Shown piece after piece: positions 1,061 to 48,396 of a stretch of 50,193 bases of DNA (the first letter of the stretch is position 1; the number at the start of each line of letters is the position of its first letter). The notes beneath the pieces are model-generated. The model did no database searches, was not told where the DNA came from, and saw nothing but the letters and a program-made list of their open reading frames with translations. This DNA comes from a virus (taxonomy: Duplodnaviria > Heunggongvirae > Uroviricota > Caudoviricetes), in the IMG/VR virus record IMGVR_UViG_2585427746_000005, positions 1 through 50,193 of that record; one strand, 5' to 3'. The position numbers were made by a program, and so were the translations under genes.

Positions 1061-1071
1061 AATAAAACAAA

Positions 1072-23391: not shown

Positions 23392-24087
23392 CTAAAACCT
23401 ATCAATTTCCAAACATGAAATGGCATCATTGAAAATTGAAAAATGCTCATCAGGAACCACTGCAGAAGCCCCACTAGTTAATTCAAAACTAATCTTTGAA
23501 TCAAGGTAAAGCCCTCCAGCTTTTATTTTATCGAGCTTGAATTCGCCATCCCCAACAAAACTCTTCAAATCATGCAAAGCATCGCCACTAGAATTCAATT
23601 CCAAACATGCTCTTGTTTTGTCAGTAACAGGAAGATTTGATACCTTCACTTTTGAAATACCAAACACCTTTACGCCAAAATTTTCTCGAACGACCCTCAT
23701 GAAAGCTTTAAGATCAACGGTTAAATTTCCATAAGCAACATTTAATCCTTCAGCCTGAGATAAAAAATCGATGAAAGGTTTAACTGTTTTTGGCGGATTG
23801 TAAAAAGTTAACAGACATATCTTATTGCTGAGGGTTTGGATAGAAAAACTAATCTGATCAAATACAACCCTTTCGAATTCCAGCACCTCACCAAATGGAT
23901 CGGCAACCGGCTCTAAAACAACAGATTTTTTATTGAAAGTTGCAGCAATACCATTATGAATGGTTTCATACTTAGTAAAGCCAGCACCAATAGCATCAGA
24001 ATAAGGCGTGTTTTTGATAAAATCAAAGACAGCCTCAGGGCTGGTTCTGATTTTCAATCTCATCCACTTCAATCTTAATTGTGACAT
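23392..24087 (-). CDS. Cargo operon gene 3, hypothetical protein
   Basis: 231 aa from ATG with AAGGAG SD; AT-rich; no motif recognised. Confidence 0.7.
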   Translation of the reverse strand: MSQLRLKWMRLKIRTSPEAVFDFIKNTPYSDAIGAGFTKYETIHNGIAATFNKKSVVLEPVADPFGEVLEFERVVFDQISFSIQTLSNKICLLTFYNPPKTVKPFIDFLSQAEGLNVAYGNLTVDLKAFMRVVRENFGVKVFGISKVKVSNLPVTDKTRACLELNSSGDALHDLKSFVGDGEFKLDKIKAGGLYLDSKISFELTSGASAVVPDEHFSIFNDAISCLEIDRF

Positions 24088-24106
24088 AGCCACTCCTTAT
24101 GATGTA

Positions 24107-25171
24107 TTAGCTGATTTCCATTATAATAGAATAAGCTCTATTTTCAATTAGTTTATTGAATCGCTCAGCTTCTCTACCAGAGAGTTTTTGCGGCTTACTG
24201 AAATATTGTCCATTTGCCTTATACTTTCTGACTCCCTTAACCAAATATGAAAAATTAGTACAATTAAGAGGATCACCAAATTGGGCCTCAAGCTCAAATA
24301 TATCTGGATCAGCCAAGTTCTCCTTGACCTTCCATTTTATTTTCCAAATATAGAACCCTCTATCATAAAGATCACTTAATTCATCAGATTTAAGCACCCC
24401 CTCCCCCTTAAGTGATGCCCTAGACACGTGCACCCCAGTTTCGGTGTTTCCATCTTCAGCCTCAATAGTTTCAGGCTTAGGGTGATATACATAAGCATCA
24501 GTAACATCCAGTAACTCATAACCATCAAGTGTACGGATTAATCTATCGAAGAATAAAGTTCTAACATCAGCAGATGTATTGTGAGAGAGAGAAATTTCGT
24601 TTAATTTTAAATCAAGGTTACTATCATCCGCTTGCTCGTCCTGAATAGCGCTGATGTGCCCAAGTAAGAGTCCCTCGTAATCTTCAAGGTTTTCATTATC
24701 TGGACGACGGATACTGTAACCATCATCAAGAGGCTCAATTTCAATTAACGCCTCTTTATTAATAGCCTGTTTGAAATCACTTTTACCATAATTAGTTGAA
24801 AGATACCTGATATTAATAAGAACTCGAGGCCCATCTACGATTATTTTACAATAATCATCCTGATCGGTAATTTCTTTCTTAAGTTTTTCTGCGGCATCTA
24901 TAATACCTTTCTTATCTATACCAGTCTCAATTCTTACACATGTAAATTTTTCGGTCCTTGTCTGGCCACCTAAAAGGGTTGCAATTTTTTGATGCTCGTA
25001 ATAATCATGAGTCATTCGAGAATAGTTTCTTGCCAATTCTTTTCGAGGTGTTTTTTTACATATTATTGTCCCCCTCTCTAAGAAAAGATCTTGAATTTCA
25101 TTTAGAGTAATTTGCTTTTGGTTTAAAGCATCATATAAAGCTTTATCAGTTACGCTGTGAATATTTTTCAT
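24107..25171 (-). CDS. Cargo operon gene 2, hypothetical protein
   Basis: 354 aa from ATG (MKNIHSV...) with GGGAG SD; ATGA overlap with gene 1 stop; no motif recognised. Confidence 0.7.
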   Translation of the reverse strand: MKNIHSVTDKALYDALNQKQITLNEIQDLFLERGTIICKKTPRKELARNYSRMTHDYYEHQKIATLLGGQTRTEKFTCVRIETGIDKKGIIDAAEKLKKEITDQDDYCKIIVDGPRVLINIRYLSTNYGKSDFKQAINKEALIEIEPLDDGYSIRRPDNENLEDYEGLLLGHISAIQDEQADDSNLDLKLNEISLSHNTSADVRTLFFDRLIRTLDGYELLDVTDAYVYHPKPETIEAEDGNTETGVHVSRASLKGEGVLKSDELSDLYDRGFYIWKIKWKVKENLADPDIFELEAQFGDPLNCTNFSYLVKGVRKYKANGQYFSKPQKLSGREAERFNKLIENRAYSIIMEIS

Positions 25172-26232
25172 TTCGGCTCCCAAGAAATAACTTCTGCAGA
25201 GAAGAATTCTTTTACTGTAGACACAACTTTAACGTCTAAATCTTCAAGCCTCTTTTTAGCTTCTTCATCTAACCCATACTCATGTGCATATTTTTCAACT
25301 CCACGTTGAAAGTGTGAGAGAATCCTCTCATCTTTTTCTCGATAAGCCAGCCTTATCCTAATTTTATTTATACCATCAAGAATTTGATAATTTGACAAAA
25401 TATCTAACAAATAAAAAAATTCATTGTCGCTATTACCTTTTTTGTTGTAATACACAACAAACCCTTCTGGATAAACCTCCTCCTCTATACCTTTAGCTCT
25501 ATTATATTTATGAACAGCGCCATGTTTGATAATCATGAAAGGTGATGACAAGACTTCTATAGTAGCTGGAAGATATTTTTCAGTCACAGCAACCTTATGA
25601 AAAGTCAATTGAGGGTAATAGAATCCATATTCTTCATCAGGAAACTCTTTCTTAGCAATCAAATCATTCATATCATTCGTAATTGCCAACATATAATTAA
25701 TCAAAAATGGATCGATTATATGAATTTGCTGACCTGAAGATAAAGGAATCTTTTCTAAATTGACAGCCTTATCCCTTCTTCCTTTAGTAGGTTTAGGAGG
25801 ATTAAAAAAATCATAAAAATCATGCTGCAACTGATTATCATGATTAAAAACAAACAACAAACCTCGAACTTCACAGTCGATTTGAGAAAAATTATACTTT
25901 TCTGACCACTCAGGACTATACCGAGCACATTCAATAGTTTTTGCTAATGACTCCAGTGCAGATTCTATTTTTGACGCATTTATTGAACCTGCTTTATAAC
26001 TTTTTAAATCAGTATTTAAATAAATGACCTTGTTTAAATATGGATCTTTATAACTAAAAACAACATCTACAGGATGCGTATGCTTCTGTTTCTTACCTTC
26101 GGGCTTATGTTTAGCCTCATCATCACAAAGGAAATCTCGGTCGCAGGGGCCATGCTGCTGCCACTTAAATCGACTCAGTAGATCCTCAGATATGCGTTTT
26201 GCCAAATCTTCAATAGGGCCGTTCTCTGCCAT
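25168..26232 (-). CDS. Cargo operon gene 1, hypothetical protein (possible PD-(D/E)xK-like motif)
   Basis: 354-aa ORF, ATG with AAGGAA SD; HPVDVVF...IYLNTDLKSYK could be a D...(D/E)xK nuclease core but this is unverified. Confidence 0.7.
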   Translation of the reverse strand: MAENGPIEDLAKRISEDLLSRFKWQQHGPCDRDFLCDDEAKHKPEGKKQKHTHPVDVVFSYKDPYLNKVIYLNTDLKSYKAGSINASKIESALESLAKTIECARYSPEWSEKYNFSQIDCEVRGLLFVFNHDNQLQHDFYDFFNPPKPTKGRRDKAVNLEKIPLSSGQQIHIIDPFLINYMLAITNDMNDLIAKKEFPDEEYGFYYPQLTFHKVAVTEKYLPATIEVLSSPFMIIKHGAVHKYNRAKGIEEEVYPEGFVVYYNKKGNSDNEFFYLLDILSNYQILDGINKIRIRLAYREKDERILSHFQRGVEKYAHEYGLDEEAKKRLEDLDVKVVSTVKEFFSAEVISWEPK

Positions 26233-32402: not shown

Positions 32403-32912
32403 TCACAGCAGGCCGAACGACGCGCCAAGGCCCGTCATTGTATCAACGGCACTACCCATCGCCGGGCTGGACTGCAGGCGCGCCTGCATCGATACCGCGG
32501 TTAATGCCATCAGGCGAGTAACAGAGTTGATACTGTCGATAATCTGGCGGCGGCCTGCAGTCGTCAGTTGCTCACCGGAAACAGCACCGGCAGCGACGTG
32601 CCCAATCTCAGCCGTTGCTTTAAGGACGTACTGCGGCATTTTCTCTTTTGCCACTTCATTCAGCGGCACGCACGGCAGGCAATGGATTTGTGCCAGGAAA
32701 CCATCAACCAGCGTGGAGTCCTCAGTGATATCTGTCAGCCCCCAGATTTCCGGCGGGGTAAGCTGATGAGGCTGGTCCGGGTTCAGCTTGTTGCGCAGAG
32801 TCTGGACGTTCATTCCGGCGCTGGCTGCCAGCTTCGCCATGTTGTGACGCAGCGCGAAAGCGCGGCAGGCTTCGTCAAAGTGCGGATGTTTGGAAATCTT
32901 ATAATCAAACAT
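32403..32912 (-). CDS. CII-like lysogeny establishment regulator (186 CII-like)
   Basis: 169 aa, same length as 186 CII, with an HTH-like segment; position after apl. Confidence 0.65.
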   Translation of the reverse strand: MFDYKISKHPHFDEACRAFALRHNMAKLAASAGMNVQTLRNKLNPDQPHQLTPPEIWGLTDITEDSTLVDGFLAQIHCLPCVPLNEVAKEKMPQYVLKATAEIGHVAAGAVSGEQLTTAGRRQIIDSINSVTRLMALTAVSMQARLQSSPAMGSAVDTMTGLGASFGLL

Positions 32913-33306: not shown

Positions 33307-33939
33307 ATGATACAGGTGAAAGCTGGCGAGAATACCGGGGGAAGAGAGGCTATCCATAGGCTAATGGCTGCCTATGATTTCAAATCCAGACAACAGCTGT
33401 GCGATCACCTGGGCGCATCAAAAAGCACCATGGCAAACAGATACTTAAGAGATAGTTTTCCAGCGGAATGGGTGATTCAGTGTGCTTTGGAGACAGGGGT
33501 TTCTTTACTGTGGCTCACTACCGGACAGGGTGAGACAGGTTCAAACATTGACCATAAAAAAGGTATCAATTTCGTGAACTCTGGCAAAGTTAAACCCCTT
33601 TCTGAGCTTGTCTCCCCCGAAATTGATAAGGCAACTCTCAACGGTGGTTTATTGGTCGATGCTGGAAAAGCAATCATTGATAGCAGCCTGCTCCCCTCAG
33701 ACTCAAGCAACCTATTGCTGGTGAATACTTCTGGAGATTCTTACTTAGTGGACCGCAGCCAAACACCTCCAGTTAACGGTATGTGGTTGGTAGATATCGA
33801 CGGAATAAAAAGCATTGTTAAGTTAACACGGCTACCAGGAAACAGATTAGTGGTCCATCAAGACGAATCATCCTTTGAGTGCAGTCTTGATGATATCGAG
33901 GTAGTCGGACGCGCATTAAAAATAATTAAGAGCCTTTGA
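33307..33939 (+). CDS. CI immunity repressor (186 CI-like)
   Basis: CALETG..LLWLTTGQGE and LWLVDIDGIKSIVKLTRLPG align with 186 CI as recalled. Confidence 0.8.
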   Translation: MIQVKAGENTGGREAIHRLMAAYDFKSRQQLCDHLGASKSTMANRYLRDSFPAEWVIQCALETGVSLLWLTTGQGETGSNIDHKKGINFVNSGKVKPLSELVSPEIDKATLNGGLLVDAGKAIIDSSLLPSDSSNLLLVNTSGDSYLVDRSQTPPVNGMWLVDIDGIKSIVKLTRLPGNRLVVHQDESSFECSLDDIEVVGRALKIIKSL

Positions 33940-33940
33940 T

Positions 33941-34969
33941 ATGACCATCAGAAAGCAGCCAAACGGAAAATGGTTGTGTGAATGCTACCCGAACGGGCGA
34001 GACGGCAAGCGTGTGCGCAAACAATTTGCGACGAAAGGCGAGGCCATAGCATTCGAAAACTTCACCATGGATGAAGTAAACAAAAAGCCATGGCTTGGTG
34101 AGAAGGAAGATCGTCGGCGCTTGTCAGAAGTAATTGAGCAATGGCACTCACTCTACGGGCAGACGCTTGCAGATCCCAAACGCCTGATGGCGAAACTTAA
34201 AATTATCTGTAATGGTCTGGGCGATCCCATCGCTTCAGAGCTGACCGCCGGTGACTTTACGAAATACCGCGAAGCACGGTTAAAAGGTGAGGTGCGAAAT
34301 GAAGATGGCGCGCTTATGTCACCAGTTAAGCCTCGCACGGTAAACCTTGAACAACGCAACCTATCATCCGTGTTTGGCACACTGAAAAAGTTGGGCCACT
34401 GGTCAGCACCCAACCCACTCGCCGGTTTGCCAACATTTAAAATCGCAGAAGGTGAACTGGCGTTCCTGACACCGGAAGAAATTAAACGCCTGCTGGATGC
34501 CTGCGCTGATTCTCAAAGCCCCAGCCTGCTGATGATTGCAAAAATATGCCTGGCAACTGGTGCACGCTGGAGTGAAGCCGAAAATCTGCAGGGCCATCAG
34601 TTATCGAAATACCGGATCACCTATACCAAGACTAAGGGCAAGAAAAACCGTACCGTGCCGATATCTCAGGATCTGTATGATGAACTTCCCAAGAACAGAG
34701 GGAAGTTATTCACCCCGTGCAGAAAAGCTTTTGAGCGTGCAGTAAAACGGGCAGGTATTGAGCTGCCTGAAGGCCAATGCACTCACGTGCTGCGTCATAC
34801 GTTCGCCAGTTATTTTATGATGAATGGCGGAAACATACTGGTATTAAGAGATATTCTGGGCCATGCCGATATAAAAATGACGATGATTTATGCACATTTT
34901 GCACCTGATCATCTAGAGGATGCAGTAACAAAAAACCCTTTACATGGATTAAAATGGACCTCACCATGA
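33941..34969 (+). CDS. int: Tyrosine integrase (P2/186 Int-like)
   Basis: 342 aa with C-terminal ...HVLRHTFASYFMMNGG...LGHADIKMTMIYAHF (R..H..Y catalytic signature). Confidence 0.9.
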   Translation: MTIRKQPNGKWLCECYPNGRDGKRVRKQFATKGEAIAFENFTMDEVNKKPWLGEKEDRRRLSEVIEQWHSLYGQTLADPKRLMAKLKIICNGLGDPIASELTAGDFTKYREARLKGEVRNEDGALMSPVKPRTVNLEQRNLSSVFGTLKKLGHWSAPNPLAGLPTFKIAEGELAFLTPEEIKRLLDACADSQSPSLLMIAKICLATGARWSEAENLQGHQLSKYRITYTKTKGKKNRTVPISQDLYDELPKNRGKLFTPCRKAFERAVKRAGIELPEGQCTHVLRHTFASYFMMNGGNILVLRDILGHADIKMTMIYAHFAPDHLEDAVTKNPLHGLKWTSP

Positions 34970-35985
34970 TTCTAGAATTAATAACTAGCAATATAAAAAA
35001 ACCAGAAATCTCTATCTTATTAATAGCTCTGTATTTAATTTACTTATTTATAGAATATACAAAAAATAAAAATAACAGTTATTTTGAAATGACTGAGGAA
35101 AGACTAACAAAACAAAAACTATTCAAACAATCAATAAGAATACCTGTTATTTCATCTTTATATTTTGGTGTCTTCGCATGGGTGGGACACTCCCCTCAAT
35201 TTGATGCTACAGGATTTAAAAACTTCATTGAAATAAGCAAGTTGCCTATTGCTCTTCTGTCTCTTTCGATACCATTTGTAGCCATAGTTGCTAACATTCA
35301 CAGAACAATACAAACCGAGAATCAAATTAGAAAAACACAACAACAGATAGATTTAGTAACCGAGAAAAACCGCAGTGATGCTTACTACGCTCACCTAAAA
35401 AATTATTCTGATATATTTAAAACACTGCCATCATTTACCCTCTCTCGCCGTGACAATACAACCTTTGAAAAAGGTACTGTTAAATTATCTGTGGATCATA
35501 CATATTCATTATATAAAAAAATATTCACAAAATCCTCAATCTCTGCTGGATATAACAGCGAGGTTGATAAAAAATTCCTTAGACAACTAGAAAACATATA
35601 CACTAGCATCGGGAATGCAATAATAAGAAACAATGAAATTTACCCAAGTCAAGTGAGCATATCTAATTTAGAGAACATTGAAGCGCTAGTGGTATTTTTG
35701 TGTAGAGAACTAGGTGTCAATTATGAACGAGAAGTTAACAAATTCGATATATTTGACCCAATTTCAAATTTAGGAATAGAAACATCATTTTCAGATGAAA
35801 AAGAGATCAAAGAAATGCTACGAGGCTTAAGGGACATATTGATATCTCTTTACATGCTAATTGATCAAAATACAATTATTTTTCAAGGCAATGCCAATAG
35901 CGGCGATTTTTTAGCTAATTATGCTTACGACCCAGATAATTTGATTTTTAAAGATATCTTACCTATAGATTCTCAAGGTAAATAA
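34954..35985 (+). CDS. Cargo: predicted multi-pass membrane protein, function unknown
   Basis: 343-aa AT-rich ORF with three hydrophobic segments near the N-terminus; sits between int and attR. Confidence 0.65.
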   Translation: MDLTMILELITSNIKKPEISILLIALYLIYLFIEYTKNKNNSYFEMTEERLTKQKLFKQSIRIPVISSLYFGVFAWVGHSPQFDATGFKNFIEISKLPIALLSLSIPFVAIVANIHRTIQTENQIRKTQQQIDLVTEKNRSDAYYAHLKNYSDIFKTLPSFTLSRRDNTTFEKGTVKLSVDHTYSLYKKIFTKSSISAGYNSEVDKKFLRQLENIYTSIGNAIIRNNEIYPSQVSISNLENIEALVVFLCRELGVNYEREVNKFDIFDPISNLGIETSFSDEKEIKEMLRGLRDILISLYMLIDQNTIIFQGNANSGDFLANYAYDPDNLIFKDILPIDSQGK

Positions 35986-36099
35986 TTGGCGACACTTTGG
36001 CGGCAGAGCATTAAAAACGTATAAAACAGACAAACATCAGATAACACTAAGGCACTGATTTAAAACATAAACTACTGTTTTTATTATAGTAAAAATGGT

Positions 36100-36144
36100 A
36101 TGTAGGAATTTCGGACGCGGGTTCAACTCCCGCCAGCTCCACCA
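36100..36144. repeat. attR: displaced 45-bp copy of the ssrA 3' end
   Basis: Identical to 1016-1060; followed by a second integrase gene. Confidence 0.85.
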
Positions 36145-36180
36145 ATTTTTGATATATTGAAGTTCAGTGAAGTCTATCAA

Positions 36181-36212
36181 GCCCGCATGGAACCAGCCTT
36201 GCGGGCTTTTTT
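36181..36212 (+). terminator. Rho-independent terminator downstream of the displaced ssrA 3' end
   Basis: GCCCGCA ... TGCGGGC stem followed by TTTTTT. Confidence 0.55.
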
Positions 36213-36310
36213 ACGTCTATAGTAGTCTACCGAGAATTGCTAGAATCTACTCGTTATGGCACCCTTTTTGGGACCCAACACAAAGGGTCCAAAACATGAG
36301 GGTCCCAAAC

Positions 36311-37540
36311 ATGGCAAAAATCGCTAAGAAGCTCACTGACACTGAAATCAAAAGCACCAAACCTGCCGAGAAAGAGGTTAACCTTTTTGACGGCGATGGT
36401 TTGCTCCTGCGAATCGCCCCCTTAGCGAAGGGAGGAAAGAAAAATTGGTATTTCAGATATGCAGTGCCTGTGACCAAAAAGCGAACTAAGGTGAGCTTAG
36501 GAACCTATCCTCACCTTACACTTGCGAAGGCACGAGCTTTACGTGATGAGTACTTGTCGTTGCTTGCAAATGGTATAGACCCACAAGTTCATAACACCCA
36601 CAAAGCCAATGCCCTTAAGGATGCAACGGAACATACATTTCAAGCAGTAGCCAAGAAGTGGCTTGATGAGAAAGTCAAAACGTCAGGCATCTCCCAGGAT
36701 CATGCTAACGACATCTGGCGAAGCCTAGAGAGAAATATCTTTCCAACGTTGGGTGATACCCCCATTAAGGAGATTCGCCCTAAAATGCTTAAACAGCATT
36801 TAGACCCCATAGAAAAACGAGGTGTCCTTGAAACACTTCGCCGCGTCATATCCCGCCTGAATGAAATTTTCCGCTATGCAGCAACAGAAGAACTCATAGA
36901 ATTCAATCCGGCTGACAACCTGGGGCAACGGTTCAGCAAGCCAAAAAAACAGAATATGCCAGCATTACCCCCTTCCGAACTCCCCCGCTTCCTGGTTGCT
37001 CTAAACAATGCTTCTATCCGTTTAGAAACAAGGCTACTGATTGAGTGGCAACTTCTCACATGGGTTCGCCCTGGTGAAGCTGTTCGCACAAGATGGTCAG
37101 ATATTGATATAGAAACCAGCATGTGGAACATCCCGGCGGAGTTTATGAAAATGAAGAAGCCTCACAAAGTTCCACTGAGCAAAGAATCTTTGCGAGTCTT
37201 GGATTCAATGAAAGCCATCAGCGGGCATAGAGAGTGGGTTTTTCCCAGTATCAAAGCTCCACTCAATCACATGCATGAACAAACAGCTAATGCGGCTATA
37301 ATCCGTATGGGCTTCGGAGGTGAGCTTGTAGCTCATGGTATGCGATCAATCGCTAGAACGGCGGCTGAGGAGTGTGGCAAGTTTAGAACTGATGTCTTAG
37401 AAGCCGCCCTTGCCCACTCGAAAAAAGATGAAATAATTGCAGCCTACAATCGTGCAGAGTATCTCACAGAACGTGTGGTTCTCATGCAATGGTGGAGTGA
37501 CTATGTTTCGTCTCAAAAATACAAAGTTATTGCCGCATAA
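36311..37540 (+). CDS. P4-type tyrosine integrase (IntA-like)
   Basis: Start moved to ATG MAKIAKKLTDTEIKSTKP...; N-terminal arm-binding-like segment and C-terminal catalytic domain. Confidence 0.9.
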   Translation: MAKIAKKLTDTEIKSTKPAEKEVNLFDGDGLLLRIAPLAKGGKKNWYFRYAVPVTKKRTKVSLGTYPHLTLAKARALRDEYLSLLANGIDPQVHNTHKANALKDATEHTFQAVAKKWLDEKVKTSGISQDHANDIWRSLERNIFPTLGDTPIKEIRPKMLKQHLDPIEKRGVLETLRRVISRLNEIFRYAATEELIEFNPADNLGQRFSKPKKQNMPALPPSELPRFLVALNNASIRLETRLLIEWQLLTWVRPGEAVRTRWSDIDIETSMWNIPAEFMKMKKPHKVPLSKESLRVLDSMKAISGHREWVFPSIKAPLNHMHEQTANAAIIRMGFGGELVAHGMRSIARTAAEECGKFRTDVLEAALAHSKKDEIIAAYNRAEYLTERVVLMQWWSDYVSSQKYKVIAA

Positions 37541-37822
37541 CTCTTCCATGATGGGTTAACTATCTTGATTTATTTGAAGAATTAATGATCACACCATTAA
37601 CCTATGTGGACTAAGCATAGCCATTTACAAATGGGTACCTTGAGGCCACATAACGAAAGCTGTCGGTCATATCAGCTAAATAATTCACATCTCTTCTCGA
37701 TTATCATACACCTCGAAGAACTACCAAATTCGCTCTAATCAATGATAAAACAGTTGAATTCGGTTAAAATTTGATCAATTTTATCCTCTACATTGTATTG
37801 AATCATCCATGAGGTTTTGTGC

Positions 37823-39379
37823 ATGGCTAGCGGAAATGAAAAAAATCATAGAGTTAGGGTCGCACAGTACTTGAGGATGTCTACCGACCATCAGCAATAT
37901 TCTTTACATAATCAGTCTGAATATATCAAAGATTATGCTGAAAAGAACAATATGGAAATCGCTTATACCTACGATGATGCAGGTAAGAGCGGAGTCAGTA
38001 TCGTAGGCAGGCATTCTTTGCAGCAGTTACTTAGCGATGTAGAACAAAAGAAAATAGATATACAGGCTGTATTATTTTATGATGTGAGCCGTTTTGGTCG
38101 TTTTCAAAATAGTGATGAAGCTGCATATTATTCCTTTCTATTTGAAAGAAATGGTGTAGATCTTATATATTGTTCCGAACCTATACCCACTAAAGATTTC
38201 CCTTTAGAGTCCTCTGTTATACTGAATATAAAAAGATCAAGTGCTGCATATCACAGCAGGAATCTATCTGAAAAGGTATTTATAGGGCAAGTAAATTTAA
38301 TAAAGCTTGGTTATCATCAAGGCGGTATGGCTGGTTATGGGCTGAGACGTCTTTTAGTAGACGAAAATGGCATAGCTAAAGAAATATTGAATTTCCGCAA
38401 AAGAAAGAGTATTCAAACAGATAGGGTAATATTAATTCCGGGACCAAAAAATGAAATAAAAATTGTAAATAGAATCTATGATCTCTTTATAGATAGTAAC
38501 GTCCCAGAATTCATTATTGCTGAGAGATTAAATGAACAGAGCATACCTGCAGAAAATGGAACATCATGGACTCGTGCAAAAATACATCAAATTTTGACAA
38601 ATGAAAAATATATTGGAAACAACATATATAACAAAACCTCATCTAAACTAAAAAGTAAGCTTGTAAAAAACCCCAAACATGAATGGATTAGATGTGACAA
38701 GGCATATAAACCAATTATTTCAAAGAAAAAATATAATAAAGCTCAAGAAATAATTCAGCTCCGATCCATTCATTTGACTAATGAAGATCTATTAGAAAAG
38801 CTAAAAGAAAAATTAGAATCTAATGGAAAACTATCAGGCTTTATCATTGATGAAGATGATACAGGCCCTTCATCTTCTGTTTATAGAACCCGATTTGGTG
38901 GTCTTTTAAGAGCATATACTTTGATTGGTTATAAGCCAGAACATGATTACAGCTATCTCCAAATAAATGAAGCACTAAGATCATTTTACTCAGAGATAAT
39001 TGAGGATTTTAAGGGCGAAATATTAAAAAGTAACTGTCATATAGACGAGTATAAATATTACCCAATGCTTTACATCAATGATGAGTTTTTAATTTCCGTC
39101 CTTGTTACTAAATGCATACATATGAAATCAGGTAAACTTAGATGGAAAGTCCGGTTTGATAACTCACAGAAAGCAGACATAACAATTGTTATACGAATGA
39201 ATTCACAAAATATTTCACCTCTTGATTTTTATATCATACCAAAGATTGAAAACGAATATAGTAAAATGTGTATGATGGAAACAAACAACATTCGGTTAGA
39301 TCTCTATAGATTTGATAATCTTGATAAATTTCTACAAATTATTACTCGCATGAAAGTGAGGGAACTATATGCTGCCTGA
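37823..39379 (+). CDS. Large serine recombinase (resolvase-domain N-terminus)
   Basis: YLRMSTDHQ...GKSGVS...LLFYDVSRFGR resolvase motifs with a long C-terminal extension; ATG with GAGG SD. Confidence 0.85.
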   Translation: MASGNEKNHRVRVAQYLRMSTDHQQYSLHNQSEYIKDYAEKNNMEIAYTYDDAGKSGVSIVGRHSLQQLLSDVEQKKIDIQAVLFYDVSRFGRFQNSDEAAYYSFLFERNGVDLIYCSEPIPTKDFPLESSVILNIKRSSAAYHSRNLSEKVFIGQVNLIKLGYHQGGMAGYGLRRLLVDENGIAKEILNFRKRKSIQTDRVILIPGPKNEIKIVNRIYDLFIDSNVPEFIIAERLNEQSIPAENGTSWTRAKIHQILTNEKYIGNNIYNKTSSKLKSKLVKNPKHEWIRCDKAYKPIISKKKYNKAQEIIQLRSIHLTNEDLLEKLKEKLESNGKLSGFIIDEDDTGPSSSVYRTRFGGLLRAYTLIGYKPEHDYSYLQINEALRSFYSEIIEDFKGEILKSNCHIDEYKYYPMLYINDEFLISVLVTKCIHMKSGKLRWKVRFDNSQKADITIVIRMNSQNISPLDFYIIPKIENEYSKMCMMETNNIRLDLYRFDNLDKFLQIITRMKVRELYAA

Positions 39380-40265
39380 AAAAAATGAATTCCCAATAAT
39401 TCAAATTGAGATTGCAAAAATAAAATTTCTTAACCCACGAACAAGAAATAAGGTAGTGCATGAAGAAATAAAGGAAAGCATAAAAAAAAGAGGATTAAGC
39501 AAGCCTATAAGCGTAAGAGCTATTGATGAAGACGATTTCAAATATGCTTTAATTTGTGGTCAAGGGAGAATAGAGGCTCTTGTTGCATTAGGTGAAACTA
39601 TTATTCCAGCAATTATAAGAGATGTATCAGAAGAAGATGCTTACGTTATGAGTTTAGTTGAAAACATTGCAAGGAGAAGACCACGTTCTAATGAGTTATT
39701 ACAGGTGATTAAAGACATGAAAATCAGAGGACTTTCAGACTCCGAAATAAGTGAGATTACTGGATATTCATCGAACTGGGTGAGCAGTATTAATATGCTT
39801 CTTGATAAGGGAGAGCATAAACTTCTCTCAGCAGTCGAACGGGGTAATTTGCCTCTGTATCTCGCAGTGCAATTTGCAAGATGTGAAACTGAGGAAGCAC
39901 AAGATATTCTTACCGAAGCATATGATAAAAAATTAATAAAAAGTCGGGACATTATAAAGATAAAATACATTCTAAATCAAAGAACAGTTGGGAATAAAGG
40001 TGCAAAAGCAGCCGGATTTTATTATCACAAACCATCAAAAAGGATGACTGCAGAGGAGTTGATTGAGCTTTATGAAAATAGTATCGCTGAACATAAATCT
40101 GTTTATAACAACTCGAAATTTATAAAAACCAATCTACTAATAATAAATGAGATTTTTAACATCATAATGATGAATAAAAGCTTTCAAAATATACTTGAAC
40201 AAGAGAATCTTTCAGAACTACCATCTCAGATATTAAACCCAGTAAACAAAGAGGTATCAAAATGA
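39369..40265 (+). CDS. ParB/Srx-fold N-terminal domain protein
   Basis: ICGQGRIEAL resembles the ParB GxxR box; 11-nt overlap with the recombinase gene. Confidence 0.65.
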   Translation: MLPEKNEFPIIQIEIAKIKFLNPRTRNKVVHEEIKESIKKRGLSKPISVRAIDEDDFKYALICGQGRIEALVALGETIIPAIIRDVSEEDAYVMSLVENIARRRPRSNELLQVIKDMKIRGLSDSEISEITGYSSNWVSSINMLLDKGEHKLLSAVERGNLPLYLAVQFARCETEEAQDILTEAYDKKLIKSRDIIKIKYILNQRTVGNKGAKAAGFYYHKPSKRMTAEELIELYENSIAEHKSVYNNSKFIKTNLLIINEIFNIIMMNKSFQNILEQENLSELPSQILNPVNKEVSK

Positions 40266-41158
40266 TTCAGATACGTTTTGGCAAAAATTTTATTTACCTG
40301 GAAACTAATAAGTTAATTCCATCTAAGGAATTATTAGAAAACGTAAAGCGAAGCCATAAATATCATCAAATAGTTACCTCTATCGAAAGCTTGGGTATTA
40401 TTGAACCAATAATAGTATTCTATGACAAAGATAAAGATGTCACTAAGATACTTGATGGCCATTTAAGGGTTGAGGCTTTAAAAGACTTAGATATAGAAAA
40501 AGCTCCATGTATACTTTCGAGCATAGATGATGCTTTCACTCCTAACAAACAAGTGAATCATATAAATGTAGTTGAAGAACATAGAATGATAATTAAGTCT
40601 CTGGCAAAAGTATCAATTGAAAAACTTAGTGCTGCTTTGGGCATATCTGTTGATGCCATAAAAGATAAAGCTAATGTGATGAACGGCATAGATCCAAGTG
40701 TAATTGCGAAACTTTCTGATAAACCTATACCTAAGGCTACATTTGACGTTTTGAGGAAAATGAAGCCAATTCGTCAAATTGAAGCAGTCGGTACAATGAT
40801 TAATTTTGATAATTATAGTAAAAAATTTGCAATGAGCATCTTGGATGCAACACCGTCATCGATGATAGTAAATAAAGGGAAAAACACTCCCTATAAAAAG
40901 GACATAAAAAAAACCATACTTCGTCTGGAACAAGAAATGGCAACAACTTCGGAAGAAACGAAAAAACTTCAAACCGAGTATGGTTCAGATATGTTGAAAT
41001 TCGTTATAATCCAGTCATATATTAATAAATTACTTGGCAACTCTAAAGTTCTTCATTGGTTCTTAGAAAACGAGGTTGATTATCTTAATGAGTTAAAAAG
41101 AATTTCTAGAATAAATTCTTTGGATGATAAGACTCTTACTGAAAACAGCCAGTCATAG
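40262..41158 (+). CDS. ParB-like nuclease domain protein
   Basis: KILDGHLRVEALKDL matches the DGHHR-type ParB-like nuclease motif; ATGA overlap with the preceding gene. Confidence 0.65.
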   Translation: MIQIRFGKNFIYLETNKLIPSKELLENVKRSHKYHQIVTSIESLGIIEPIIVFYDKDKDVTKILDGHLRVEALKDLDIEKAPCILSSIDDAFTPNKQVNHINVVEEHRMIIKSLAKVSIEKLSAALGISVDAIKDKANVMNGIDPSVIAKLSDKPIPKATFDVLRKMKPIRQIEAVGTMINFDNYSKKFAMSILDATPSSMIVNKGKNTPYKKDIKKTILRLEQEMATTSEETKKLQTEYGSDMLKFVIIQSYINKLLGNSKVLHWFLENEVDYLNELKRISRINSLDDKTLTENSQS

Positions 41159-41811
41159 TCATGGTTTTATATAGCCTAAATAAACCAAGAAGTATACTTA
41201 CACAACGACCTTCACGCCGAAGAAGCTGTCAGATACGCCAGCAACCAAAGCATTGCGTTTAAGAGTCAGTCATTGATACGAAGGGATAACTGCGTATCAG
41301 CAGCCGGACATTGAGTCGAATAAAGGCTGGTAGAGAGGGACAGTTCTGTGTCACCGGGAGATTAGTCAGAAACATCAGCGGCAGAACAGATGAACCAGCA
41401 ATTGGTAGTGTACAGAAAACTCTCCAGTATATAATTATTCAACTTAACACTAAAAAAAATCACATAGTTAATATCATAATTTTTCTTTGGTCTACTTATG
41501 CGAGAGATATTGTGGCTTCAACCTGGTATTAGGAGTCGTTTCAGATAAAAGATGTTCTTCGATTCGACTGGACTTGGTAATAGCAATAAGTAATCGTGAA
41601 TATTGAAGGACGAAAGGCTACTTCAAAACAAAGTAACCTTTCCAATATTCCCATATATGGGACAAGTGGCACATTAACTGCACATAGTGCAGGATACATA
41701 TGACATAAAACTTTTTATTTATGGCATACATTAAAAATAACTTTTATTTTACGAATGTCAATAGGCTCTTGCTTAATACTTTTAAAATAATTAATTGATT
41801 TTTTATTATAG

Positions 41812-41831
41812 CTTCGCTTGTACAAGCGAAG
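41812..41831. repeat. Perfect 20-bp palindrome
   Basis: CTTCGCTTGTACAAGCGAAG equals its reverse complement; in the 1-kb non-coding gap between convergent operons. Confidence 0.6.
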
Positions 41832-42162
41832 ATCCTATTGTTCTTGAATGAATAATGCCAATTATAAAAGAAGCAAGGGCTAACCCTACGAAGCCGCTGC
41901 GCTTGTTTCTTTGGGTTCCCCTTGCTTTTCTTCCCTTCGGTTAGAAAAGAAAATCCAGCCCAGTTTATCAACTATCTACAGTATTCCCACTAAAGAGTAA
42001 CCGCCACTTTATACTCCGTTTGTGAGCTGAGGCTACTGTAGCATTTTTGGGTTTAAATTTTCTATCATTACCAGTTGTTGTGTCGGGATAAAAATATTTT
42101 CTCGCATCCAACCATAAAGATAGCAGATTTGCTATCATCATCACTTCACATAATGAAACTTT

Positions 42163-42194
42163 TTAAGTAGGCCTAAAATACAAGGCCTACTTAA
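42163..42194 (-). terminator. Putative terminator hairpin after the RelA/SpoT-like gene
   Basis: 11-bp perfect inverted repeat TTAAGTAGGCC / GGCCTACTTAA, 17 nt after the stop; no clean U-tract. Confidence 0.4.
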
Positions 42195-42210
42195 TAGCCG
42201 GAGATAGTTA

Positions 42211-43116
42211 TTATTTAGATGCTAAAATAGTATTTTTATTGAATTTTTCATCAGCATCTGTAAGCTTTTTCATTATTAAAGCAGGGGCTATATCCTGAAG
42301 CTCCGTAGATTTTATGAAAAAATAATTACAAAGGTAAATTATATTATTAAGATTAATTGGTATATCAATATTATAATCTAACATTAACGATAACAAACGA
42401 TCTCTGTCAATTCTATAAAACTTTTTACCAAGCTCTTTCTCATTAATTATTGAAATTATCTTTTCATCAAGCTTATCGTCCATTCTCAATCTTAATTTAT
42501 TTCTTAGCATAGCGGACCATGCGCTTGACTTATAATTTCTATATGCTAAATCCTCAAATAACTTCATTATTCCCCAATCAGATGTTTCCAAAGAGGCGTA
42601 AATTCCATTCAGCGCGCGACTAAGGTCATTATGCTCAACCCAATCCTCTTTGCACTTATAGCGTAGATCATGCTCAACTTCATGCCATCCTTCAGATAAA
42701 ATAGTTCTAAATTGGACTTCAAAAGTAGTATCAATATAAGAATATTTCTTTAATAAGACACTATCATTTGATAATACTTCTGGTAACTTAAAGACGTAAT
42801 TGCATCGAGTTGCCGCAAAGAGATTAGCCGTGGTTTCGTCTACGGTTTTAGATTCAATTTCGAATAATTTCTCCAGTGTTTTTTGAGCAATAAATAAATC
42901 ATCAGGAAAATATAATATTATCCTAACCCCAAATAAGTCTTGAATTTTTTTACCATCCTCTGAGTATTTATTAGGCTCTTTTTCATATTTCTTAATTATT
43001 GAGCTTTCTGATTTTGTCCTCGAAAAAAAACGATAAAGTAATCCAATACGATTAAGTTCATCTTCTATATCTTTTTGCAAACTTTGAATAATTCGCAATT
43101 CATTCCCGTTATACAT
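42211..43116 (-). CDS. RelA/SpoT-domain nucleotidyltransferase (small alarmone synthetase / toxSAS-like)
   Basis: DLFGVRIILYF and FEVQFRTILSEGWHEVEHDLRYK match the synthetase-domain motifs; start overlaps the upstream stop (TGATG). Confidence 0.8.
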   Translation of the reverse strand: MYNGNELRIIQSLQKDIEDELNRIGLLYRFFSRTKSESSIIKKYEKEPNKYSEDGKKIQDLFGVRIILYFPDDLFIAQKTLEKLFEIESKTVDETTANLFAATRCNYVFKLPEVLSNDSVLLKKYSYIDTTFEVQFRTILSEGWHEVEHDLRYKCKEDWVEHNDLSRALNGIYASLETSDWGIMKLFEDLAYRNYKSSAWSAMLRNKLRLRMDDKLDEKIISIINEKELGKKFYRIDRDRLLSLMLDYNIDIPINLNNIIYLCNYFFIKSTELQDIAPALIMKKLTDADEKFNKNTILASK

Positions 43117-45221
43117 CAGAAATTCCTCCCAAGAATTGCTTTAATCTCTGATATTCTTGCCATGTTAAGTTCAAGGAACGAACGCTTGTCTGGCGTAAGT
43201 AAAAGACCGTCTTTCCTCAATTTATCTAAAGAATGGAGTATTTCACTTAACTGAAATTGATTGTTGTTAGAACATAAGCCTTTTATAGGCCGATGCTTAT
43301 GATAGCTAACACTCCCTCTGGGACAGAACTTCTCTAAGATGTAAATATCACAATCTGTAATATCGTGATCATTTTCACTGTTTATCTCGACAGATTTTTT
43401 ATTAATAGCATCATTGTCACATTCACATCCCAAAAAATAAATATCTTCCCTACCACTTAATTCGTTAAAACTACAATCTATAAAAGAACAGTTCACGAAT
43501 GTAACGTTTTTATAATTACCACAGGTAAATATGCTGCTAAAAAACGAACAATCAACAAAGATAGTATCATGTATTATATTTATATCGCCTAAAGAAAGTT
43601 TTGATATAGACAATTGCTCAACACTATCATTTTTTAAATCTAATGGAACTTTTCCTATAAGCAAATGACTATAAAGGATTTTATCATTACCTGACATAAA
43701 ATATAAAGCAAACTCTAAGCTATGCCAAAGTAATTCTTTTTCATCATCGATCCTCGGCATATAAGATTGCACTGCTGGTTCTATAAAACGTTTATCACCA
43801 ATCCATTCATTTGACTTATCATTAATAATATTTTCAGAAACAAAATTACCAAGAACAAATTCATTAACAAATCCAATACCTTGGTTTTCTGAGCCTGACC
43901 GATCTAATAGAGCATGCGATGCTAATTTATTAACTAATTCGTCAGTAGTTGGTCTTTCATCTACAGTATAAAGCTTTCTTGTAGCCTCCAAGAGTTGTTG
44001 ATTCTTTTCAGTTATGACTAACGATATATACTCTCTAGACTCAGATGTGTAGTTACCCTCGACCATGTCGTCAGCTATTATTTTTAGTATAGTATATTGA
44101 TCTTCAATAGACATTAATAAATCTTGTCTTTTTCTTTCTCGCTCAAGCATTGAATCAAAATACTTCCTCACTATAGTTGTTGGGTCGCTTATAACTTTAT
44201 TAAAGTCGGTGTCGTCGATGCATCTTAGAAATGATAGCAGTACAGGGTTTGATAATTTGTTAAGAGGAAATCCTGTCGATGAAATTTCATCTAAACGTTG
44301 ACCTGGAAGCCAGTCTTCAATTTGTGGTTCATGAATTCTTATTCTTATCACATCAAAATCTTCTTGATGTGATGCTATCCACTGATGGAATTCATCTCCG
44401 TCAAATATAGCTGTTCTTCGAGTTGTCAAAACCACTTTTGCACTATCAGTTAGAAGCTCACTTATTGTTTCCAGCATTGGCTCTGTTTTTTCATAATTAT
44501 TTTCAATTCCGTTTGTACTTTCATGCAATAGTTCATCAAACCCGTCAAGTATAACTGGTACATTTCCTGCTCTTATTTCATTCCTTACTAAGGCTGAGCT
44601 TAACAAAGGAAAACTTCTATCAATTTCATCTAATAGTACATACCTGAATATTTTTGCTTGCCTATTCCTTGATAGTTCTGAAAATAATGGTATTTTCCCT
44701 ATATTGTTAACTATAATCTCCCTCAATAATTCATACGCCGTGCAAGTCTTTCCAAAACCGGCTGCAGCCTCAATCAAAAACAGAATTGGACGCCTATGTT
44801 GTATTCTCTCTAATATTTCCGTAACAACATTAGCTTCGCCAATAACACCATTTAAGTAATATTTTGAATTTATGTAGGAATAAGTTGCAGTAGGTGAGTG
44901 AATTTTTACAATTGAATCTGTGAAAGTATTATAATCTTTAATCAACCTTTCTTTAGTTGAATCGACGCTAAAGAAGCCATTAAATAATTCCTTATGTGCT
45001 TCTTCATAAGACTGATATTTTTTAATTTGACATGCATAACCTAACTGCCTATATTCTTCAAAGGTTTGATTTACATTAACCTCATTATTTAGTGGAAGTA
45101 TGTCCGCGTTATGGTAGTGCCCTGTTTTAATAGAATATACAGCAATACTTTCGTTACCTGTATTTTCTTCAGTAAAACCAAACCTTTTATATATCTCTGT
45201 AAGTTTGCTTTTTCGTAACAT
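43116..45221 (-). CDS. NACHT/STAND-like P-loop NTPase with C-terminal pentapeptide repeats
   Basis: Walker A AAAGFGKT, NACHT-type Walker B VILDGFDEL, C-terminal FVDCSFFSSIFTCGNYKNVTFVNCSFIDCSF repeats; start moved to ATG with AGGAGG SD. Confidence 0.8.
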   Translation of the reverse strand: MLRKSKLTEIYKRFGFTEENTGNESIAVYSIKTGHYHNADILPLNNEVNVNQTFEEYRQLGYACQIKKYQSYEEAHKELFNGFFSVDSTKERLIKDYNTFTDSIVKIHSPTATYSYINSKYYLNGVIGEANVVTEILERIQHRRPILFLIEAAAGFGKTCTAYELLREIIVNNIGKIPLFSELSRNRQAKIFRYVLLDEIDRSFPLLSSALVRNEIRAGNVPVILDGFDELLHESTNGIENNYEKTEPMLETISELLTDSAKVVLTTRRTAIFDGDEFHQWIASHQEDFDVIRIRIHEPQIEDWLPGQRLDEISSTGFPLNKLSNPVLLSFLRCIDDTDFNKVISDPTTIVRKYFDSMLERERKRQDLLMSIEDQYTILKIIADDMVEGNYTSESREYISLVITEKNQQLLEATRKLYTVDERPTTDELVNKLASHALLDRSGSENQGIGFVNEFVLGNFVSENIINDKSNEWIGDKRFIEPAVQSYMPRIDDEKELLWHSLEFALYFMSGNDKILYSHLLIGKVPLDLKNDSVEQLSISKLSLGDINIIHDTIFVDCSFFSSIFTCGNYKNVTFVNCSFIDCSFNELSGREDIYFLGCECDNDAINKKSVEINSENDHDITDCDIYILEKFCPRGSVSYHKHRPIKGLCSNNNQFQLSEILHSLDKLRKDGLLLTPDKRSFLELNMARISEIKAILGRNF

Positions 45222-45298
45222 TAAACTCACCTCCTGATATTTTTCGCAATGATGCTATAGTCGCTGTATGAACTTTTAATATAATATTACAAAAACCA

Positions 45299-45337
45299 TC
45301 TACATAGCTACCGCCTAAGCAATAATAGCTATGTAGA
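45299..45337. repeat. 12-bp perfect inverted repeat upstream of the NTPase operon
   Basis: TCTACATAGCTA - 15 nt - TAGCTATGTAGA; followed on the minus strand by GGTTTTTG. Confidence 0.5.
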
Positions 45338-45945
45338 GATTATCTGTAAGAGAACAGTTCAACGGTTACGTGCACGTTATGACATCGTTCTAACTTCATG
45401 GGGTGCTCAGTAACAGAACTTTTAAGCCATTCTTGCTCGCTGAACATGCAGTCATACCTATCACAAGCAGTACAACCATTACTTAGCAGACCTCTGCTTC
45501 TTGTTCCAAAAGGAACGTAAACCAGATGTTAGAGTTAACAAAACTGAAAGCCACTGCCCCCCAAATCTCCAAGTCAAACATTAGAGACTTTAAGTGAGCT
45601 CAGCCCAGATTATGCATTCTAATCAATTTCCAAATAATCAATCGGGCTAAGCCGTGGTGGTCATCGCGCCAATCCCCATAATGAAGGATACATCTTGGCT
45701 GTATCATCTTCCTTACAACTGCGTTTCAACATGTGCTGAACAACACTCAAGTTAATGTAAATGAGCCAGTGAATACAACATCTGTTTCAAATCACTTTGA
45801 AGTTTTCTTCACTTAATGTGTACGCCAAAATTATCCGGATAAACATAGAGTAACGGTCGACCGGGATTACAATCAACCAGTTTCATCTCTAGTAAGCGAT
45901 ATTCTTAAGGCGGCAGCGGAATGTTCTGACAACCCCACTGAGGCG

Positions 45946-46332
45946 GTGCTACAAATCTTATCGAAGCCAAACATCAGCTACGTTTCCCTAGATGTTAAAA
46001 TCAGTAGTCGCAGGGCCAATGCTAATGATCCACACATTGACCGTGAAGGGGCCTTTCAGGTGGGTACGACTGCATTCCAAGTGACCACCGCACCTATGGA
46101 GAAATTGATTTCACACTGTATCAAAATCAAACGCGCAGGCTACAGGCCGGTCATCCTAACTCTTGAAAGCAAGGTCATTGCAGCACGCCAGCTGGCTGAT
46201 AACGTTGGTATGTCTGAACTGATAGCCATCCAGGCAGCTGAAACTTTCATTGGTAACAATATTGAAGAGATTGCTATTTATGACGGCGATAAAATCCGTG
46301 AGAGTCTCGCAAGATTGATACATCTCTTATGA
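45946..46332 (+). CDS. Hypothetical protein or gene remnant
   Basis: 128-aa ORF with GTG start and no clear SD, after about 600 bp of ORF-free sequence. Confidence 0.3.
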   Translation: MLQILSKPNISYVSLDVKISSRRANANDPHIDREGAFQVGTTAFQVTTAPMEKLISHCIKIKRAGYRPVILTLESKVIAARQLADNVGMSELIAIQAAETFIGNNIEEIAIYDGDKIRESLARLIHLL

Positions 46333-46913
46333 TTGATGAGCCTCTTGGATCGTTAACTTACTGACCGACTCCTGAAATACATAGAGCTCAGTAAGCTTAA
46401 CGAGTCGCTTTTTTCCACCATACCTAAGCCCCAAAACTAAAGCACTACGGCTTGATTGGGCTGGCGTAAGTCTGCACACCGAGCCTTTTGCACTATAAAT
46501 TTCTCAGAATATATAACCAATATGTCAGTAAAGGTTTAAAGTGAATGATTCGTTTTGGCAGGATACTTACGATTATCACAACACTATCACATATTGTGTC
46601 TCACACACAAAGTTGAAAATCAAAACAGAAGTAAAAGATATAATATTCCCCTGCTAAAATACGATTCACTTCAAACATTTAATATTAATGGGATATATTT
46701 CCCCCTAAGCAATGGGGAAAAACGCCCATCAATCAACCATGAAATAAAAATAGCACTTTTTGCAAACTATGAATTTATTTATATAAAACATCACATTAAA
46801 TTAGTTTATTCAAAAGAAAACGCTTGCTTATTTTTTATTATTAAAAATAAATTTGATTTTTATTTATTTGATAATATACATTCATTTCATCAAAATAATA
46901 AAGGAGAATAAAA

Positions 46914-47354
46914 ATGAAAAAACAAAACTATTCAACCCTGACAAGTTACCTATCTAAAACAAAAAAGAATACAGATCTCTACCGTCTGTATAACCCTCAC
47001 TTTTCAATATTCTGTAAAAATAGCATTGAAGATCATGTTTTTTATCTTAATTATTTTTCCAGACATATGGTGACGGAAAGAAATATTCTGACCATATTTG
47101 CTATCCATACCTTTTTCTCTTATAGCATGGAAAAAAAAGACACCATAAAAGCTTTTACCCGTTTTCTTAAAGAGGAGAATCACGATACTTTCTATCAGTC
47201 ATTTTCTTTTCGTGGCTGCAATATCATTTACACAAACAAAAAAGGCGAAGTGAAAGAGATCTCATGGTTTTCTTTTTCACGGATCTATGACGAGATCATT
47301 AAGATAAAAGAATATGAATACAACAATAATACCTGGCACAAAACGACCGCTTAA
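46914..47354 (+). CDS. Hypothetical protein (first gene of ankyrin operon)
   Basis: 146-aa AT-rich ORF, ATG with AAAGGAG SD. Confidence 0.6.
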   Translation: MKKQNYSTLTSYLSKTKKNTDLYRLYNPHFSIFCKNSIEDHVFYLNYFSRHMVTERNILTIFAIHTFFSYSMEKKDTIKAFTRFLKEENHDTFYQSFSFRGCNIIYTNKKGEVKEISWFSFSRIYDEIIKIKEYEYNNNTWHKTTA

Positions 47355-47368
47355 AAAGGAGAACGCCC

Positions 47369-48322: not shown

Positions 48323-48396
48323 AACTCTGGAGTAAACAACCCTTTTCTTAGTCTGCAAGGATTCATTTAATGACCATTAATCTGATATGTCCTCGT

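Follow-up and report, generated by a model that had tools for sequence, protein, structure and literature searches.

The stretch of DNA analyzed here (the window: 50,193 nucleotides, IMG/VR virus record IMGVR_UViG_2585427746_000005) raises the question of what an AT-rich gene for a membrane protein is doing between the integrase gene (int) of a prophage and its right attachment site (attR). An earlier note on this DNA had singled out the open reading frame (ORF) at 34954–35985 as cargo and had named superinfection exclusion and abortive infection as common roles of membrane proteins encoded in such positions. We found the ORF to be a real cargo gene of foreign composition, located in a single-gene slot that is exchanged among closely related prophages, and its product to join a conserved N-terminal membrane core to a hypervariable C-terminal domain. 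The most likely of the functions considered, which we advance only tentatively, is that of a lysogen-expressed, single-protein anti-phage factor acting at the membrane by abortive infection.

The cargo gene and its slot

The element carrying the ORF is a 186/P2-type prophage integrated in the Escherichia coli transfer-messenger RNA (tmRNA) gene ssrA. The left end of the window is E. coli smpB-ssrA (99.9% identity to E. coli genomes), with ssrA, the integration target, at 698–1060 on the plus strand (ARAGORN tmRNA, tag ANDENYALAA) and its 3′ end forming the left attachment site (attL). The 46-bp attL core (1016–1061, plus strand) recurs with 100% identity as the attR core, the duplicated ssrA 3′ end, at 36100–36145 on the same strand (direct repeat family D2, spacing 35084 bp), and the two copies bracket a 35-kb element with P2/186-type genes. 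Peduoviridae, including Yersinia phage MLG42 and Salmonella phage SEN8, match 60%–67% of this element at ~84% identity. Because this exact repeat defines attL and attR, the ORF lies between int and attR, as the earlier note had placed it: int (33941–34969, plus strand), encoding a tyrosine integrase of the 186/P2 type (Pfam Int_N and Phage_integrase; phrog_1), is followed by the ORF, which ends at 35985, by arm-like repeats from 35987, and by attR from 36100.

The ORF itself (34954–35985, plus strand; from the ORF list, with a match to phrog_17460) has a GC content of 0.31 and a GC content at third codon positions (GC3) of 0.26, whereas GC3 is 0.48 in int and the rest of the prophage has a GC content of 0.52. 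Read from the ATG at 34954 it encodes 343 aa and overlaps int by 16 nt, which agrees with the AT-rich, int-overlapping frame first described; read from the in-frame ATG at 34966 it encodes 339 aa and shares a 4-nt ATGA overlap with the int stop. Because of this ATGA overlap, and because the RefSeq start of the E. coli homolog corresponds to the ATG at 34966, the product is probably 339 aa long and translationally coupled to int. The gene is under purifying selection, with a ratio of nonsynonymous to synonymous substitution rates (dN/dS) of 0.11–0.16 in both protein halves when compared with homologs in E. coli 13P477T and [Erwinia] mediterraneensis. A profile search returned 1203 homologous clusters at 50% identity (E ≤ 1e-3), of which 266 had E ≤ 1e-30, and a word-indexed search returned 71, every one named "hypothetical"; together, the dN/dS values and the 1203 clusters show that the ORF is no chance reading frame. 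It is also intact across dozens of genomes and viral contigs.

Comparison of this junction across related prophages, a check that the earlier note had called for, revealed a slot that is polymorphic between near-identical flanks. Based on blastn of the window against sister prophages (L001–L008), the variable cassette spans 34939–35986: similarity to sister E. coli prophages ends at 34938–34952, in the last int codons, and restarts at 35980–35987, and an E. coli prophage with an empty slot (L004) has 32 bp in place of 1048 bp. The conserved phage backbone restarts at two direct TTGGCGRCA repeats (35987–36010, plus strand). Probably Int arm-type binding sites, they are similar to YAYCGCCAYTY, the arm-type consensus in the phage 186 record, when this is reverse-complemented. 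We surveyed the slot in the 80 closest Int relatives in IMG/VR (95%–98% identical), 71 of which have downstream sequence, and found it empty in 43 (with the TTGGCGRCA motif 21–24 nt past int), filled by other cargo in 18, filled by the ORF's family in nine, and unclear in one; as the IMG/VR samples were not dereplicated, these counts are indicative only. That sister prophages (Int 92%–98% identical) are empty or carry unrelated genes at this position bears out the cargo status claimed for the ORF, which is an accessory, moron-type gene in a single-gene exchangeable slot between the int 3′ end and the Int arm-type sites.

In other E. coli, the slot is occupied by GapS1, located directly past the int stop (NF047931 match of 428 bits vs a cutoff of 320), by an HNH protein matching PADLOC HNH models, by a 222-aa protein with a hydrophobic N terminus (a small transmembrane [TM] protein), by a divergent member of the ORF's own family, or by an uncharacterized 395–424-aa family. 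The integrase-to-att position has been listed as a minor P2 defense hotspot, holding 3% of P2 systems (NAR 2026, PMC13586616), and the phage 186 record places orf69 in the same position, within the annotated lysogenic operon. The expectation of nothing but an att site at this position in P2-type phages thus holds for 43 of the 71 closest relatives, whose slot is empty, but not for phage 186, nor for a position that is already a known minor hotspot.

The 395–424-aa soluble family was the most frequent non-empty alternative in the slot sample, with 18 instances (L005, L006, L113–L115, L120, L139, L140, and others), and has the conserved block LFRVRKSD...IFHIPF...AQRYSVxGLPCLYLG. It is another candidate defense cargo. 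A weak RES-domain match of the 397-aa alternative cargo fell below threshold (E = 0.0046) and did not recur in a relative, and the family was left unnamed. A C-terminal tail of some homologs, "...NGDxLAAEH", was likewise rejected as a functional motif because it is translated arm-site DNA just downstream (GGCGACACTTTGGCGGCAGAGCAT) and because it is also present on an unrelated GapS1-like cargo protein. The "...GDxLAAEH/T" ends of slot proteins P0010, P0024, P0028, P0033, P0036, and L149 are translations of the conserved DNA at 35987–36014; these cargo ORFs therefore read through into the Int arm-type repeats.

The ORF's family is near-exclusively tied to the 186-type int-att slot. Complete family ORFs are present at 77 IMG/VR loci. 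At 73 of these, the gene immediately upstream is a 186-type int on the same strand, at a distance of −31 to +260 nt (mostly −31 to +26), and CI is also encoded at 74 of the 77. The family uses this slot in genomes of Citrobacter, Raoultella, and [Erwinia] mediterraneensis as well, a partial int precedes the family gene at one Kosakonia locus, and a narrow-pattern scan of genome contigs yielded six family loci. Members outside the slot are a minority and are always a single gene, found at the ends of lambdoid prophages in Proteus, among the type IV secretion system genes of an integrative and conjugative element (ICE) in Dickeya, beside an integrase in a Xenorhabdus prophage remnant, after umuDC in Pseudomonas, and in the accessory end of the Vibrio inovirus VALG_phi6. 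The family is rare in complete E. coli genomes, with DNA-level relatives of the conserved core in at least 22 of 5426 genomes. No true plasmid-borne copy was found in the plasmid collection. The record NZ_CP019275.1 (37-kb "plasmid" p13P477T-2 of E. coli 13P477T), which bears a homolog and is listed as plasmid and phage, holds a frameshifted 186-like prophage copy along with ratA, bamE, recN, and ppnK; its reading as an excised phage circle was rejected, and because of its frameshifted chromosomal genes (recN, bamE, ratA) it is best read as an assembly artifact.

Architecture and conservation of the protein

The kind of locus is known, being hotspot cargo of a P2-like prophage; the protein family, as far as the searches made here reach, is uncharacterized and has no known relatives. 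The hidden Markov model predictions that had been proposed as a check make the product a clear member of phrog_17460 by profile match (E = 6e-56, protein residues 26–304 vs profile positions 15–292 of 343). This is one of only two PHROG families that the ORF matched, neither with an assigned function, so no mechanism was gained from membership. No match was found in Pfam for the ORF or its relatives (a 32-member family set, whose sequences were also used for the family alignment and the AlphaFold2 [AF2] input described below) or in NCBIfam, including its antiphage models, for the ORF, and PADLOC v2.0 gave neither a significant match for the ORF nor a consistent match across the 32 members. The sole PADLOC match of the ORF, to PDLC00695 (a "2TM" effector model; E = 0.017, 12.7 bits, over the first hydrophobic segment), is at chance level. 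A PDB sequence-profile search returned only designed helical bundles (E ≥ 0.004), fold comparison against PDB and BFVD gave no informative match, and full-text literature searches for slot-protein accessions and phrog_17460 found no paper. Neither the family's tie to the slot nor its evolution as a conserved core with a variable domain was found described in the literature searched.

Hydropathy profiles identify N-terminal hydrophobic segments and thereby mark the ORF product as an inner-membrane protein, in keeping with the membrane character originally ascribed to it. Kyte-Doolittle 19-residue windows exceed 1.5 at residues ~14–37 and ~91–119, and the family-mean hydropathy has three segments, at about 14–41, 55–78, and 91–117, adding support for 55–78. 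Hessa-type sums, with scale values after Hessa et al. 2005, are 2.8 (18–36), 6.0 (60–78), and 3.0 (97–115), and ≥10 elsewhere. Of the three N-terminal hydrophobic helices that had been described, TM1 and TM3 are therefore clear, whereas TM2 is marginal on the Hessa-type scale.

Delimited by hydropathy, the Hessa-type scale, the AF2 model, and the alignment, TM1 (aa 18–36; 35005–35061, plus strand, as are all the segments that follow) is variable in sequence, and four of the 32 aligned members lack it as called, beginning at the equivalent of M46. The marginally hydrophobic TM2 (aa 58–78; 35125–35187), delimited by the same four means, has invariant P64, G72, and W76, and TM3 (aa 97–115; 35242–35298; hydropathy, Hessa-type scale, and alignment) is the most conserved segment, with the motif LPxxLLSLSIPFVAIV. 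A conserved polar juxtamembrane helix (aa 114–149; 35293–35400), read from invariant and near-invariant alignment columns as NIHRTIQTxxQI ... KNxxDxYYxHxK, overlaps its end and leads toward the hypervariable C-terminal α/β domain (aa 156–343; 35419–35982), which is predicted to be cytoplasmic. The AF2 model of the product, with a predicted local distance difference test score (pLDDT) of 87, has helices at 17–40 and 55–76, two short loop helices, and a long helix at 105–155 that runs out of TM3 and contains the polar helix (a longer extent of this helix in the model is 96–155), followed by the α/β domain; modeled alone, the C-terminal domain has a pLDDT of 86 and a predicted template modeling score of 0.86. 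The count of lysine plus arginine (K+R) is 3.4 for the TM1-TM2 loop and 5.7 for the stretch that follows TM3, compared with 1.9 for the TM2-TM3 loop; this distribution favors an N-out, C-in topology, in which the C-terminal domain of ~190 aa would be cytoplasmic.

Conservation is concentrated in residues 46–155 of the alignment, which include the invariant positions L51, Q54, L56, F57, P64, G72, W76, F91, P107, H116, Q120, Q124, and K138 and the conserved motifs FIEISKLP..LLSLSIPFVAIVNNIHRTIQTxxQI and KNxxDxYYxHxK. Past residue 150, Y187 is the sole near-invariant position, for which reason a binding domain is favored over an enzyme. Alleles in the same slot, with Int 92%–97% identical, are 44%–70% identical in the core (aa 46–155) and 16%–20% identical in the C-terminal domain. 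Among pairs with cores at least 60% identical, the C-terminal domains are undetectable to each other by BLASTP in 48%, yet 213 of 228 C-terminal domains chain into one homologous cluster; the domain is thus homologous across the family but very fast-evolving.

Proposed function and rival explanations

The genomic context, namely the slot position, GapS1 as an alternative occupant, and other defense-like loci in the prophage, favors an anti-phage role. A protein in which a conserved membrane module is followed by a hypervariable, predicted cytoplasmic domain without enzyme-like conserved polar residues has the pattern expected of an effector and a sensor in one chain. The ORF probably shares a transcript with cI and int, its translation being coupled to theirs, and would thereby be made in the lysogen. 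Such expression is suggested by the ATGA overlap with the int stop and by the annotated lysogenic operon of phage 186, whose record runs from pL through cI and int to orf69, with the operon terminator beyond attP. The gene order in the window is that of cI-int-orf69 in phage 186, the 186-type CI repressor gene (33307–33939, plus strand; Pfam Phage_CI_repr and Phage_CI_C) being the first gene of the lysogenic operon. In the anti-phage role tentatively proposed above, the cytoplasmic C-terminal domain would recognize some component of the phage during infection, upon which the conserved membrane module (TM2-loop-TM3 plus the polar helix) would oligomerize or open, and membrane integrity or potential would collapse, aborting the infection. 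We consider abortive infection at the membrane more likely than a block to DNA entry.

PdpSau of Staphylococcus aureus prophages and lactococcal AbiP, both single membrane-anchored abortive infection proteins, are the closest functional analogs of the ORF product. Like the ORF, each is a lone, prophage-borne gene whose product has an N-terminal membrane anchor and a cytoplasmic C-terminal domain. When phage infects, PdpSau brings about a loss of membrane potential (PMC10127798), the mechanism that may by analogy apply to the ORF product. However, PdpSau and AbiP each contain a single TM helix and an OB-fold-like domain that binds nucleic acid, unlike the three hydrophobic helices, polar juxtamembrane helix, and α/β domain without an OB-fold match of the ORF product, and no sequence relationship of the ORF to either was found. 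GapS1, which takes the same slot in sister E. coli prophages, has sensor and effector in one protein, as proposed for the ORF product, but it is a soluble PD-(D/E)xK phosphodiesterase that is triggered by a phage capsid protein and induces dormancy, whereas the ORF encodes a membrane protein of unrelated sequence without a nuclease motif. The mechanism proposed for the ORF product shares with the TM effectors of CBASS and Pycsar (PADLOC "2TM") the idea of a membrane-disrupting module released by a sensor; however, no cyclase or partner gene lies near the ORF, and only two of the 32 family members match any 2TM model. The 186 gene orf69, which encodes 83 aa, can be likened to the ORF by position. 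With the P2-like int-att hotspot as a whole, the ORF shares its position (after int, before the att arm sites), polymorphic occupancy, single-gene inserts, and GapS1 as an alternative; however, recognizable systems were counted there (NAR 2026, PMC13586616), whereas the ORF's family is recognized by no library tried.

A broader proposal, which we hold with slightly more reserve, is that the ORF may be the founding example of a new and widespread single-protein anti-phage family, in which a TM2-TM3/polar-helix effector is gated by a fast-evolving cytoplasmic sensor and allele swapping in the slot retunes which phages are excluded. The family (at least 1200 clusters at 50% identity) was seen mostly in Enterobacterales here and was the commonest or second-commonest slot occupant of 186-like prophages in the sample. 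In favor of the main reading, GapS1 has been validated against phage, including by deletion of an endogenous E. coli homolog (bioRxiv 10.1101/2023.03.28.534373), and one study observed activity for over a third of the P2/P4 hotspot systems that it cloned.

Several points weigh against an abortive anti-phage role. Published screens obtained a phenotype for no more than about one in three of the hotspot genes tested, and no homology to a characterized defense, abortive infection, or superinfection exclusion (Sie) protein was found in Pfam, PADLOC, PHROGs, or NCBIfam, nor an informative fold, so that the functional assignment rests on position and architecture. The topology is predicted from hydropathy and K+R counts with a marginal TM2, and a periplasmic C terminus would favor a block to DNA entry. 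The predicted periplasmic loop, GFxNFIEISKLP, is highly conserved, which gating from the cytoplasm alone does not explain. Expression in the lysogen is likewise a prediction, and the slot counts, taken from non-dereplicated IMG/VR samples, are a rough guide to how common the family is.

Superinfection exclusion, in which an inner-membrane protein would block entry of the incoming genome without killing the cell, as do T4 Imm, P22 SieA, and HK97 gp15, is an unlikely alternative. The position next to int often holds Sie genes, and the ORF is a gene for an inner-membrane protein in the lysogenic operon, adjoining int. The predicted periplasmic loop (aa 79–96) and TM3 are the most conserved parts of the protein, as might be expected if they touch a conserved component of the entry machinery, whether of host or phage. 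However, the hypervariable domain of ~190 residues is predicted to be cytoplasmic, where an entry blocker would need no specificity, and there was no match to a Sie family in PHROGs or Pfam. T4 Imm, P22 SieA/SieB, and HK97 gp15, which are made in the lysogen or early in infection, are likewise phage-encoded proteins of the inner membrane, and they protect against other phages, but the ORF product is much larger, with a hypervariable soluble domain and no family match; to our knowledge, the Sie proteins that have been characterized are small, with no large soluble domain.

We regard as comparably improbable a lysogenic conversion function unrelated to phage, such as immunity to pore-forming bacteriocins, a part in envelope or stress adaptation, or some other contribution to host fitness. 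Immunity proteins against pore-forming colicins likewise reside in the inner membrane, with three to four TM segments, and O-antigen modification genes adjoin int-att in other temperate phages; moreover, most hotspot genes in screens gave no anti-phage phenotype. Nonetheless, the ORF and 31 relatives have no Pfam match to GtrA, glycosyltransferase, acyltransferase, or immunity families, which sets them apart from the GtrABC/Oac O-antigen genes found next to int-att. Other occupants of the slot include the validated GapS1 and the HNH protein, and one domain diverging rapidly between near-identical flanks is typical of conflict genes.

Still less probable is a function for the prophage itself, whether by tuning induction, excision, or the timing of lysis, by countering P4-like satellites, or by stabilizing the prophage as a membrane toxin. 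Tight coupling to int, the presence of 73 of 77 IMG/VR copies in one phage lineage, and a P4-type integrase island directly adjoining attR would all fit such a role, as would the predicted three-TM, N-out/C-in topology, which resembles that of class I holins. Yet the gene is dispensable for the phage, as 43 of the 71 closest relatives have no cargo in the slot and unrelated genes fill it elsewhere; the family also occurs in lambdoid prophages, an ICE, and an inovirus, and no partner or antitoxin gene is conserved beside the ORF. Class I holins are also about 100 aa in length and encoded beside an endolysin, whereas the ORF product has 339–343 aa, belongs to a cI-int operon, and has no holin Pfam match. 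Finally, the reading of the ORF as spurious, or as decaying amid AT-rich junk DNA, to which the low GC content and the lack of annotation and of a known domain might point, is refuted by purifying selection on both protein halves, intact copies in dozens of genomes and viral contigs, and the pLDDT of the AF2 model.

Returning to the proposed anti-phage role, the ORF is a good, well-defined, and testable defense candidate rather than a surprise. If its product is active, it would represent a compact one-gene, membrane-based defense family with no relative among characterized systems, and the 186-like int-att slot would be upgraded from a minor hotspot to a defined site for single-gene cassettes. 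The dozens of divergent C-terminal domains on one membrane core, next to near-identical integrases, form a natural allele library suited to mapping specificity, and the clean slot boundaries (the last int codons and the Int arm-type repeats) can be used to mine further candidates, such as the 395–424-aa family and the 222-aa TM protein. If inactive against phages, the product would still be among the commoner unexplained membrane proteins, presumably lysogen-expressed, of enterobacterial P2-like prophages.

Other genes of the prophage and the adjoining island

The right end of the prophage also encodes CII (32403–32912, minus strand), upstream of CI. Just past attR, a consensus scan detected a terminator-like hairpin with a T-run (36195–36217, plus strand), which is probably the native ssrA terminator and would likely also end the cI-int-cargo transcript in the lysogen.

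Two further cargo loci were observed in the prophage. A low-GC block of three genes (23392–26232, minus strand; 233, 358, and 354 aa; GC 0.32–0.40) lies between the portal/terminase genes and gpA, which is the classical P2 old/tin hotspot, and its products match PADLOC Hp3, Hp2, and Hp1 (E = 1.7e-9, 5e-39, and 2e-66); the Hp1-like protein also has a weak resemblance to GapS4a, below the NCBIfam cutoff. The third cargo locus of the prophage is a single gene at 14034–14927 (plus strand, GC 0.36), located on the strand opposite to the surrounding structural (virion) genes; its product matches Pfam DUF2971 and, in PADLOC, the candidate model PDC-S31 (E = 1.9e-39).

A second low-GC mobile island (36167–50193) begins directly past attR, and the prophage and the island are therefore in tandem at ssrA. 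It starts with a P4-type integrase (Arm-DNA-bind_3), followed by a large serine recombinase (37817–39379), and also encodes two ParB/RepB-like proteins (39369–41158), an ankyrin-repeat protein (47369–48322), and a MobA/VirD2-type relaxase (48928–50193). In Citrobacter portucalensis (L024, 6345–11047), a divergent allele of the ORF's family occupies the same slot with an ssrA-type site, and the neighboring P4-type-integrase island carries GAPS4-like genes (PDDEXK_GAPS4, GAPS4b_N); the tandem of prophage and defense island thus recurs across genera. Two adjacent minus-strand genes in the island of the window (42211–45230) make a candidate two-gene defense system: one encodes a RelA/SpoT-domain protein (301 aa, with a weak match to PADLOC PDC-S33), and the product of the other (704 aa) contains a NACHT-associated inactive restriction-endonuclease domain (NA-iREase2, E = 1.4e-33). 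Within the relaxase ORF, a perfect (GCCAGT)n array of ~14 units (49749–49844) would encode a Pro-Val repeat in the frame of the relaxase and could be a slippage-prone tract.

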